Made by a program: the position numbers and the translations under genes | Shown here: positions 3,014 through 6,713 of the stretch, piece by piece | Position numbering within the stretch: position 1 is the first letter of the stretch | How the letters are laid out: every line of letters starts with the position of its first letter | Origin: a virus | Lineage: Duplodnaviria > Caudoviricetes | Reading direction: 5' to 3' (one strand) | DNA length: 29,025 bases | Virus record (IMG/VR): IMGVR_UViG_3300037501_000260 | Location: 1 to 29,025 of that record | Notes under the pieces: model-generated | Databases searched by the model: none | What the model was told of the DNA's origin: nothing | What the model saw: the letters and a program-made list of their open reading frames with translations, nothing else

Positions 3014-3030
3014 CACAAGGAGTTAAAAAA

Positions 3031-3997: not shown

Positions 3998-4207
3998 ATG
4001 ACGCAAAAAGATCGGATAAAAAAATATATTGACGATTTCGGCGGGATCACGGCAGCGCAGGCTGCCGCTGATCTCGGCGTGATGTATCTATCGGGGCGGA
4101 TCAAAGACTTGCGGCGCGACGGAGTGCCGGTTGTCGCAGTTCCTCGCGTAGGCATTAACAGATATGGGGACAAGGTGCGGTATCATGAGTACACGATCAA
4201 AGTATAG
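3998..4207 (+). CDS. Winged HTH protein (HTH_39-like)
   Basis: MTQKDRIKKY..GGITAAQAAADLGVMYLSGRIKDLRRDG. Confidence 0.75.
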   Translation: MTQKDRIKKYIDDFGGITAAQAAADLGVMYLSGRIKDLRRDGVPVVAVPRVGINRYGDKVRYHEYTIKV

Positions 4208-5135
4208 AGCGCCGTTCCCATATTTCGGTGGGAAATCAAAAGTTGCTGATATAGTATGGCAGTCGTTAGGCGATCCAGAACATTATATCGAGCCGTTTTT
4301 CGGAAGCGGCGCGGTACTGTTATCTCGTAAAAACTGGTACGGTAAAATTGAAACAGTAAACGACAAGGACGGATACATTGCAAACGTGTGGAGATCGTTG
4401 CAGTTTGCGCCGGATGAGGTGGCGCGGTGGTGTGATTGGCCGGTTAATCACGCGGATTTATCGGCGCGGAAAAAAACGTTGGTAAAAAACGAATCGAGAT
4501 TATTGGAAAATCTTATAGCCGACGAAAAATGGTATGATGCTGTAATGGCTGGCTACTGGATATGGGCGGCGTCGTGCTGGATAGGTAGCGGGTTGACTTC
4601 CATCGGGAAAAGACCGCACGTCAGCAACAGCGGCACTGGCATACACGCAATCGGGAAAAGACCGCACGTCAGCACTGGAGGCAAGGGCGTACAAGAGCCG
4701 TATAACACCAACATCTATACGTGGTTTCGCGAGTTGTCGGAGCGGTTGCGCTACGTACGCGTTGTATGCGGCGATTGGACGCGGGTATGCGGAGGAAATT
4801 GGCAAATCAATTGCGGCGTTTGCGGAATTTTTTTCGACCCGCCGTATGGCGTGAAAGATAGAGATACTGACCTCTATCATATCGATAGCACTACAGTTGC
4901 AGAGGATGTAATGGCGTGGTGTGCGGAGCGTGGAAAACGCGAAACATATCGCATCGTAATCGCCGGGTACGAAGAGTACGAACCGTTGCTCAAAAATGGA
5001 TGGCGGTATATCCAATGGAGTTCGAAAGGTGGATATAGCAATCTTGGCAACGGACGCAGGAAAATAAACCGGCACCGCGAGCGGCTGTATTTTTCGCCAC
5101 ACTGTATCCAATCGGGGAACGAATTGTTTTTATGA
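4185..5135 (+). CDS. DNA adenine methyltransferase, D12/Dam-like (orphan)
   Basis: PFPYFGGK, YIEPFFGSGAV (motif I), ETVND, FFDPPY (motif IV). Confidence 0.92.
   Translation: MSTRSKYRAPFPYFGGKSKVADIVWQSLGDPEHYIEPFFGSGAVLLSRKNWYGKIETVNDKDGYIANVWRSLQFAPDEVARWCDWPVNHADLSARKKTLVKNESRLLENLIADEKWYDAVMAGYWIWAASCWIGSGLTSIGKRPHVSNSGTGIHAIGKRPHVSTGGKGVQEPYNTNIYTWFRELSERLRYVRVVCGDWTRVCGGNWQINCGVCGIFFDPPYGVKDRDTDLYHIDSTTVAEDVMAWCAERGKRETYRIVIAGYEEYEPLLKNGWRYIQWSSKGGYSNLGNGRRKINRHRERLYFSPHCIQSGNELFL
4602..4674 (+). repeat. 25-bp direct repeat with 48-bp period inside the methyltransferase
   Basis: atcgggaaaagaccgcacgtcagca at 4602-4626 and 4650-4674 (IGKRPHVS twice). Confidence 0.95.
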
Positions 5136-5144
5136 TAAAAACAC

Positions 5145-5173
5145 TTGACTAAAGCGAGTTATTATATTATATT
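5145..5173 (+). promoter_or_regulatory. Sigma70-type promoter of the replication operon
   Basis: TTGACT, 17 bp, TATATT; shares cttgact and tatattatattat with the early promoter. Confidence 0.75.
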
Positions 5174-5182
5174 ATGTTAAGT

Positions 5183-5296
5183 ATGATAACCTATGGGCAA
5201 AATAAACGGAGAAAATCGGCGCAAGCCGTTTTTACAAGGGCGGCGGTATTCTATGCCCATAGGTACGCCGCCGACCCTTGTTTTTTTTCCCTATGA
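5183..5296 (+). CDS. Putative 37-aa leader peptide coupled to the initiator gene
   Basis: MITYGQNKRRKSAQAVFTRAAVFYAHRYAADPCFFSL; starts near the predicted +1; its TGA overlaps the initiator ATG (ATGA). Confidence 0.45.
   Translation: MITYGQNKRRKSAQAVFTRAAVFYAHRYAADPCFFSL
5234..5288 (+). terminator. Leader terminator/attenuator
   Basis: acaaggg-cggcgg pairs with ccgccg-a-cccttgt, followed by T8, just before the initiator ATG. Confidence 0.7.
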
Positions 5297-6078
5297 ATAA
5301 ACGGTATTGGCTAAAACTGAATGAGCATTTTTTTGACGACGACAAAATTATTTGGCTTGAGTCGCAACGCAACGGAGAAAAATATGTTTTGATATGGGTA
5401 AAATTACTTCTGAAGTGCCTGAAAAATAGAGACGAAGAGCATATAGGATTTTTGAGATTTACCGACAAGTTACCATACACGGAAGAACTGCTATCGAAAG
5501 CGCTATCAACAGATATAGATGCGCTACGGGTTGCGATGAAAATGTTTTTTGAACTTGGTATGGTGGAAAAATTGAAAGATGGAACATTGTACATTGAGGC
5601 AGTCCAATCGATGATTGGGAGTGAAACATCCGCGGCAGAACGGATGAGACGTATGCGGGAAAACCGCAAATTTTTGCAAATTTCGCAGGTAAAGCGTAAC
5701 AATGTTACAGATGTGACGCGTAACGAGTTACACAATAAAGATATAGATATAGATAAAGATATAGATATAGAGAAAGAGAAAGAGAAAGAGAAAGAAAAAG
5801 AGAAAGAAATTTTCGACGTAAAAATTCCTGAAGTTATTGACGTTGAAATTTTCCGCGTGGCATGGAGAAAATGGGTTGAGTATCGAAAACAAATCCGGAA
5901 AAAACTTAATCGCATGACAGCCGAAAAACAACTTGAATTTCTCTCTGAAAATTCATCAGACGCAGTCGAGATAATCAATCAAAGCATCCGCAACGGCTGG
6001 CAAGGCTTGTTTCCTCTGCGCCGTGGGAAAGAAGCGCCGCGGCGTATTGGTATCGCTTTGCCGCCATCGGACTTTTGA
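5293..6078 (+). CDS. Phage replisome organizer (replication initiator)
   Basis: MNKRYWLKLNEHFFDDDKI..LE...NGEKY..IWVKLLL N-terminal domain, IGSETSAAERMRR, DIDIDKDIDIEKEKEKE linker, SIRNGWQGLF C-terminus. Confidence 0.9.
   Translation: MNKRYWLKLNEHFFDDDKIIWLESQRNGEKYVLIWVKLLLKCLKNRDEEHIGFLRFTDKLPYTEELLSKALSTDIDALRVAMKMFFELGMVEKLKDGTLYIEAVQSMIGSETSAAERMRRMRENRKFLQISQVKRNNVTDVTRNELHNKDIDIDKDIDIEKEKEKEKEKEKEIFDVKIPEVIDVEIFRVAWRKWVEYRKQIRKKLNRMTAEKQLEFLSENSSDAVEIINQSIRNGWQGLFPLRRGKEAPRRIGIALPPSDF
5694..5808. repeat. Iteron-like repeats plus gatata/gagaaa tandem hexamers, candidate origin
   Basis: gcgtaac-aat-gttaca (5694-5709) and gcgtaac-ga-gttaca (5718-5732), then AT-rich hexamer repeats. Confidence 0.5.
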
Positions 6079-6086
6079 GGTGTGCT

Positions 6087-6713
6087 ATGGATACAATAGG
6101 CAACATAATACGCTACGATACGGCTATTGCAAAAAAAATATCAGACGGCGATATACCTTGCATCGCAGAAGAAAAAAAAGCCAACGAAAACGATATTTTG
6201 AGACAAAAAATAATTCTGTCTTTTGGGAAACACTATGCCGACAAGTCGTTTGAAAATTTCCGCGACGAAAAAAACACGATTGGGAAAGCAAAAAAAGCGC
6301 TCGAAAAAAACATGGGGCTATATATATACGGCAAGTCGAGGACGGGGAAAACGCATCTTGCTTGCGGAATATATCGGCATATACACAAAACAATATCGCA
6401 TAATGTTTTGTTCAGAAAATGCGTCGAGCTCGATATTTTGTTTTCCGATTATAACGACGATGAGAGATTGCGAAAAATCGAGCTTTTGAAAAAAGTTGAT
6501 TATCTATTCCTCGACGACATTGGAGTTGGAAAGTTAACGCAAGAAAGGCATAGCATGTACTATTATGTGATAGACTATCGCCTATCTAACGACTTATGGA
6601 CATGCTACACGTCTAACTACATGACCAACGAACTTTGGAAAGGGAGCACGGATGCTGACCCAGCGAGGATAATATCAAGAATACGTGAGACTTGCAAAGG
6701 GATTGCGCTATGA
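6087..6713 (+). CDS. DnaC/IstB-like ATPase (helicase loader)
   Basis: Walker A GKSRTGKTHLA, Walker B LFLDDIG, YTSN, RIISRI; GAGGTG SD. Confidence 0.9.
   Translation: MDTIGNIIRYDTAIAKKISDGDIPCIAEEKKANENDILRQKIILSFGKHYADKSFENFRDEKNTIGKAKKALEKNMGLYIYGKSRTGKTHLACGIYRHIHKTISHNVLFRKCVELDILFSDYNDDERLRKIELLKKVDYLFLDDIGVGKLTQERHSMYYYVIDYRLSNDLWTCYTSNYMTNELWKGSTDADPARIISRIRETCKGIAL

Follow-up and report, generated by a model that had tools for sequence, protein, structure and literature searches.

A leader RNA with a box complementary to the loop of its own predicted terminator, located 5′ of a phage replication initiator: an uncatalogued element of a recurring type

What governs expression of the replication initiator in an uncultured tailed phage, and does the short leader between its promoter and its start codon act as an RNA-level control? 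The window, i.e., the entire 29-kb (29,025-nt) stretch of phage genome analysed here, has all of its encoded genes on the + strand; these specify RecT, a Gam-like protein, an RHH protein, a D12 methyltransferase, a Phage_rep_org_N initiator, a DnaC-like loader, a terminase, tail proteins and an amidase. The two ends share a 142-nt repeat that differs at a single position, which suggests a circular genome of 28.9 kb; the IMG/VR record classifies it as linear and 34% complete. The source habitat may be freshwater, going by a matching metagenome run, and blastn with the window recovered no match among cultured phages. No tyrosine or serine recombinase, integrase, S24, HTH_3 or ParA protein was found either in the window or in G001, a complete 45-kb relative with the leader. 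These absences would agree with the original suggestion that the leader could stand in for a classic repressor, but the window does encode a small RHH gene (PF01402; 3675-3839), its sole repressor-like candidate besides a winged-helix ORF.

The initiator (PF09681, E 1e-23; 5293..6078, + strand) is followed in its operon by the DnaC-like helicase loader (6087..6713, +) and preceded by the D12-class adenine methyltransferase (4164..5135, +), which ends 9 nt 5′ of the promoter and contains a 44-nt duplication of 84% identity at 4602-4693. In the interior of the initiator gene (5696-5731), two GTAAC-N-GTTAC palindromes precede an A-rich repeat tract; this arrangement is origin-like, so that read-through from the leader would transcribe a likely origin too.

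The leader begins with a sigma70-type promoter (TTGACT-17-TATATT; 5145..5173, +; score 10/12), with a predicted start at ~5180-5183. Its central feature is a pair of 11-nt segments: box A (5189..5199, +), the 5′ pairing box and the predicted antiterminator arm and trans target, and box B (5254..5264, +), located in a hairpin loop, immediately before the 3′ arm. The two are perfect reverse complements, and none of 1000 shuffles reach such a pair (p 0.001). Across the whole genome only two perfect 11-bp pairs occur at a spacing of 30-109 nt, the other being A/T-rich and inside recT; the genome holds no further copy of the box motif within 1 mismatch. Between the boxes lies a GCAA tetraloop hairpin with a 4-bp stem (5217..5228, +), which in the A:B conformer is predicted to pair with the 5′ arm of the terminator instead. 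The terminator itself (5234..5288, +) is a long intrinsic hairpin of 14 bp with one bulge, which carries box B in its loop and ends in a U8 tract; its predicted fold is significant (-27.4 kcal/mol, z -4.61; 0/200 shuffles as good), and a simple terminator scan overlooks it because the loop exceeds 8 nt. Two reading frames cross these structures: a near-leaderless ORF of 37 codons (5183..5296, +), whose stop overlaps the initiator ATG (5293) as ATGA, and a second frame of 35 codons (5193..5300, +) with its AUG inside box A and a third AUG (5253) in frame. Six nt of the box A core recur over the initiator AUG (5290..5295, +), a repeat that is not conserved in relatives. The initiator has no Shine-Dalgarno (SD) sequence; a match of at least 4 nt is found at 12 of the 13 other non-overlapped starts checked. 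The features named in the original prediction all lie where it placed them; the 35-codon frame and the box A repeat over the AUG are additions to it.

Two further searches were negative. No known RNA family was recovered: Rfam yielded no match at the gathering score in the window or in sets of 16 and 9 loci, and a search of 5100-5400 for C4-type models gave none at E up to 10. An antisense RNA over the leader had also been envisaged. Attenuators of the pT181/pIP501 kind require a counter-transcript from the opposite strand; a consensus scan found no antisense promoter over the window leader, and the one minus-strand promoter-like site nearby (5189-5161) faces away from it. By the same kind of scan, antisense promoters occur in 6 of 14 leaders of the relative set against 3.9 expected, and the antisense promoter was rejected as a family feature for want of an excess. 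A sense promoter is present in 11 of the 14.

Elsewhere in the early region, the promoters at 704-732 and 5145-5175 have TTGACT and a TATTATATTAT stretch in common. The GC-rich stretch at 1970-2135, preceding recT (2162), folds strongly (-91.9 kcal/mol, z -5.25) into four hairpins followed by a terminator (2104-2127); it gave no promoter-like site before recT and no Rfam match. It is overlapped by a possible 55-codon gene (1933-2100) with an ATA start, a strong SD and an arginine-rich tail.

We folded the window leader as equilibrium snapshots of a growing RNA with +1 at 5180, which gives predictions and not kinetics. The A:B fold prevails from 5261 to 5276 (P 0.96-1.0, -30.5 kcal/mol), its extended helix taking the terminator 5′ arm, and the terminator fold prevails from 5279 (-32.0 to -36.5 kcal/mol). 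As nested folds the two are mutually exclusive, with a gap of 6 kcal/mol. In the refolded read-through RNA, the freed box A is predicted to base-pair over the initiator AUG (unpaired 0.15 vs 0.66 with A:B).

For relatives of the leader, 89 initiator loci were reduced to 43 non-redundant upstream regions, with L004, L057 and L060 left out because their match misses the N-terminus. Most of these regions are mid-operon; ten of the 43 have a promoter, a 5′ segment, a long hairpin and a U tract directly 5′ of the initiator in testable form (L018, L020, L025, L027, L028, L034, L037, L038, L043 and L044), and in L030 and L054 the hairpin is present and the contig end cuts the region. By eye, the sequences of the first-set leaders are unrelated, and the searches turned up no close relative of the window leader. 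A second collection, gathered with the rule fixed beforehand, comprised 160 more loci (the best 80 of 337 and the best 80 of 460 matches) and 132 non-redundant regions. Here a terminator stands 5′ of the initiator in only 4, with complements of 8, 6, 7 and 9 bp (4114/100,000), which implies that the element is uncommon outside the window's clade. All 175 regions together hold 10 other sites with a promoter, a hairpin and an ORF, 4 of them with at least 7 bp; L023 and L087 have leaders 5′ of methyltransferase genes that in turn lie upstream of the initiator. The closest initiator by protein comparison is P0001 (86%). Searches by DnaC or terminase gave no close relatives, the terminase match L282 (35%) coming from a stretch that has no rep gene. 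A pattern scan for the window's box pair added no members (one chance match, L006); stem scans modelled on L023/L087 returned 0 and then 15 matches, none with an upstream hairpin, and a pattern of the L044/L231 type returned 2, both the L231 sequence. In the annotation tables of 8 phage or plasmid records, taken from 253 plus 48 matches, the initiator stands ~80 nt or less from the upstream gene.

The pairing was measured as the longest perfect complement between the 5′ segment and the interior of the leader's own hairpin, whole-duplex energy being a poor statistic for it. In the first set of 11 leaders, the window's included, the cognate sum is 85 against 57.8 +/- 4.0 when partners are swapped (0/200,000 permutations); in this set the pairing had been seen by eye ahead of testing, with three boundaries drawn manually. 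Without the window the sum is 74 (again 0/200,000), and dinucleotide shuffles give a Fisher p of 2e-6. Under a uniform rule, at least 7 bp are found in 12/12 rep-upstream hairpins, among them the weak L017 lying inside an ORF, against 34/143 others, which are mostly weak hairpins in coding DNA. The 14 sites of the later set, which were unselected, give 95 vs 71.9 +/- 4.1 (1/100,000). The direct-repeat control is weakly raised as well, at 3024/100,000 and, in the unselected later set, 2423/100,000 (76 vs 69.1).

Two alignable pairs of leaders add compensatory changes. Between L044 and L231, an 8-bp A:B helix shows three double-sided changes and one single-sided change with all pairs kept, a covariation that is not significant alone (78/500 shuffles, two sequences); between L023 and L087, two of five core pairs have changed on both sides, and two flanking pairs are broken in L023. 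A further relative, L019, whose initiator is 72% identical, has two boxes of 7 bp, with A:B predicted to form first, and a hairpin that lacks a U tract and covers the SD (unpaired 0.11). A hairpin that hides the SD instead of terminating points to an interchangeable output platform, as expected of a cis-regulatory switch. Leader-specific pairing in relatives, compensatory changes and the SD-hiding relative together make an RNA switch 5′ of the initiator well supported by comparative sequence evidence, as originally proposed, and the pairing, though not its letters, recurs in many relatives. We consider it likely that the switch is an attenuator of some kind, be it through feedback in trans, in cis only or through a leader peptide. 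Two other structures bear mention here: L028 has, 700 nt upstream of its initiator leader, another leader built in the same way (1600-1770) whose 8-bp key differs; and in L152, from a Fusobacteriaceae bin, a long hairpin and a small 3′ hairpin lacking a U tract (~1330-1500) precede the initiator, the loop of the latter hairpin appearing by eye complementary to an upstream segment.

The same data bear on whether the element works as DNA, namely as an ordinary terminator beside an inverted repeat that serves as an operator or is a chance match. The genome does encode RHH and winged-helix proteins, and in the 14-leader RNA set (the 11 plus L231, L249 and L258; L252, weak and inside an ORF, was dropped) the extended A:B duplex favours neither strand (7/14). 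However, in 14/14 leaders box B is less paired than interior windows are on average (0.79 vs 0.40 unpaired), the spacing of the boxes ranges over 24-63 nt with free sequence and no other copy within 1 mismatch, and the permutation tests (0/200,000 and 1/100,000 above) speak against chance; this explanation is thus very improbable. Hairpin stability favours the sense strand in 13/14 leaders.

How would such an RNA switch work? The model that we favour, if tentatively, is antitermination in cis by A:B pairing that is shut off in trans by accumulated short RNAs. During transcription box A would pair with box B before the terminator can form and would so block it, the short A:B helix presumably keeping a polymerase-tethered 20-bp stem from winding up. 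On a fresh genome, read-through would be the default, so that the initiator and the helicase loader are made. A terminated RNA of ~105 nt would then accumulate with genome number and time, and by binding box A on newly made transcripts these short RNAs would bring termination back. The outcome would be negative feedback that needs no protein and whose keys are specific in sequence, suited to the control of dose, timing or superinfection. We favour feedback in trans because it needs no conserved protein site, and accounts for keys that are free in sequence but matched within each leader; P4 CI and IsrK offer precedents for it. Several folding predictions count against it. Most leaders leave both boxes accessible once the RNA is finished, which would let the two pair with each other; box A is hidden (less than 0.5 unpaired) in only 4/21. 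The nested A:B form prevails ahead of hairpin completion in only 4/14 leaders. In 5/14 the terminator form is more stable by 19-27 kcal/mol, so that A:B there has to form by kissing or as a pseudoknot, which might exist alongside the terminator. When the window's hairpin and the nascent 5′ part were folded as two strands, no A:B duplex appeared (-37.2 vs -36.1 kcal/mol for the monomers), although the folding model used cannot place a helix in a closed loop.

A purely cis-acting attenuator, in which polymerase speed, pausing, temperature or a phage or host protein sets the balance between A:B and the terminator with no RNA acting in trans, would fit all of the covariation data. The two folds of the window leader lie close in energy, which agrees with it, and it has a precedent in the pLS20 zipper attenuator, which the available part of PMC13401043 describes as antiterminated by default, with no known trigger. 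The window also offers a candidate site: a 15-nt motif, GGAGA-N3/4-CGGCGCAAGC, occurs only at 2078-2095 and 5208-5226, its last 10 nt beginning 17-18 nt 5′ of each of the two early terminators. This is a possible antitermination site; it was spotted post hoc, and 26/2820 windows share a 10-mer. Against a protein-dependent version, the boxes vary freely among leaders, so that no conserved protein site is visible, and we regard the cis-only reading as unlikely overall.

A different function for the terminated RNA can be envisaged, in which A:B clamps it into a compact pseudoknot, a small RNA that acts on other targets while the initiator is expressed through terminator leakage. In most leaders the terminator form leaves both boxes exposed, which would suit such a molecule, as would the clustering of predicted leader RNA lengths at 86-138 nt. 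Yet the leaders have no conserved sequence, other parts of the window's genome match box B over 8 nt at most, the L019 hairpin masks an SD and lacks a U tract, and leaders of this layout stand directly 5′ of a gene, all of which makes this role improbable.

The original prediction also proposed a coupled leader peptide. In the version considered here, a ribosome on the 5183 or the 5193 frame would cross the hairpin, prevent termination and hand over to the SD-less initiator. In the window the two frames do end on the start of an initiator that lacks an SD, one of them begins inside box A, and the available part of PMC8053102 provides precedents in R1 Tap, IncI1 RepY and IncI2 RepR. Such frames are frequent by chance, however: 12% of window shuffles yield a coupled ORF of this kind, 1017/20,000 (5%) give an ATG ORF that starts in the first 24 nt and ends over the rep start, and given the ATG the frame stays open in 3904/20,000 (20%), so that by itself the leader ORF carries little weight. 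Nor is the frame kept as the pairing is. None of 11 relatives (0/11) has an ATG ORF that begins near the TSS and runs to the rep start, and a coupled ATG ORF of at least 25 codons occurs in 3/21 leaders (the window, L019 and L249) against 1.3 expected, a 22nd row (L242) having been dropped for a mislocated start; in the L019 leader (126-258) a 33-codon ORF stops just 5′ of the initiator. Several relatives have a normal SD, which in L025 and L043 is AGGAGG, and L034 has neither an SD outside the hairpin nor a coupled ORF. Control through the peptide is thus decidedly unlikely and finds no support as a family feature; the leader ORFs would at most be the window's private way to translate its SD-less initiator, secondary to the RNA switch. 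Three other candidate family features were also set aside: the downstream box copy resembling seqC proved private to the window (6 nt there; cognate 4-6 vs a non-cognate mean of 4.75 in 11 leaders), and YUNR motifs gave a mixed result, beside the antisense promoter treated above.

Taken together, the leader is a real, uncatalogued RNA element of a recurring type. It is possible, though we hold this broader claim with less assurance than the feedback model, that it represents a widespread leader class free of sequence constraint, in which one RNA of ~110 nt would be a promoter-proximal sensor, a terminator and its own antisense regulator; its short products would count genomes and provide a lock-and-key shut-off of replication with no protein repressor or antisense promoter, the output being either termination or SD masking. 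If so, uncultured and apparently non-integrating phages would have a means to limit or time their replication by RNA alone. The family is defined by geometry, and as only geometry is kept, alignment-based RNA searches miss it. The natural pairs with different keys (L044/L231 and L023/L087) make the question of cis vs trans action testable and would offer ready orthogonal RNA-controlled terminators.

We found no description of the element in the literature; an earlier listing is possible in the supplements of PMC10690425 (0 matches in 6 files) and PMC5737381. The comparisons that follow draw on the available portions of the papers cited. The P4 CI and P1/P7 C4 RNAs (PMC4825925, PMC5320573, PMC3632133) resemble the leader in having an antisense box and an upstream target on the same strand, in causing early termination before replication or lytic genes and in placing specificity in a short variable loop; P4 CI RNA ends replication-gene transcripts by pairing with seqA and seqC (PMC4825925). 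In contrast to these RNAs, the leader matches no Rfam model, is predicted to fold as a single long hairpin and not into the three stems of C4, carries its antisense box inside an intrinsic terminator hairpin, has a downstream target of only 6 nt that is not conserved, and gates the replisome organiser itself rather than kil, icd or ant. The likeness to P4 CI and P1 C4 originally drawn therefore stands for the upstream same-strand target and lapses for the Rfam model, the three-stem fold and the downstream target. IsrK of Gifsy-1, as described in the same part of PMC4825925, likewise combines a promoter, a short terminated RNA and a read-through mRNA at one locus, its short form being proposed to act on its own long isoform; it activates orf45-anrP translation, whereas the effect predicted for the leader is on termination, and the leader matches no Rfam model.

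The pT181 and pIP501 systems (named in PMC3834814) are antisense-driven rep attenuators. They share with the leader a terminator and an antiterminator directly 5′ of a rep gene; the competing antiterminator is seen in silico in the window and its nested form is dominant in 4/14 leaders. They differ from it in that the leader has no antisense promoter and is carried by a tailed phage. In R1 tap-repA, ColIb-P9 repY-repZ and IncI2 repR-repA (PMC8053102), a short ORF runs into the rep start, as it does in the window only; the overlap that had suggested this parallel is real there and not kept among relatives, no antisense RNA gene was seen, and the leader consists chiefly of a terminator. Compared with the pLS20 zipper (PMC13401043), the leader lacks, by inspection of the folds, a long central zipping stem, measures ~110 nt vs 456, precedes phage replication genes and often relies on loop-loop pairing. 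The leader is thus a variant of known RNA-controlled replication gates, and by analogy it probably acts like P4 CI/P1 C4 or the pT181-type attenuators, while belonging to neither.
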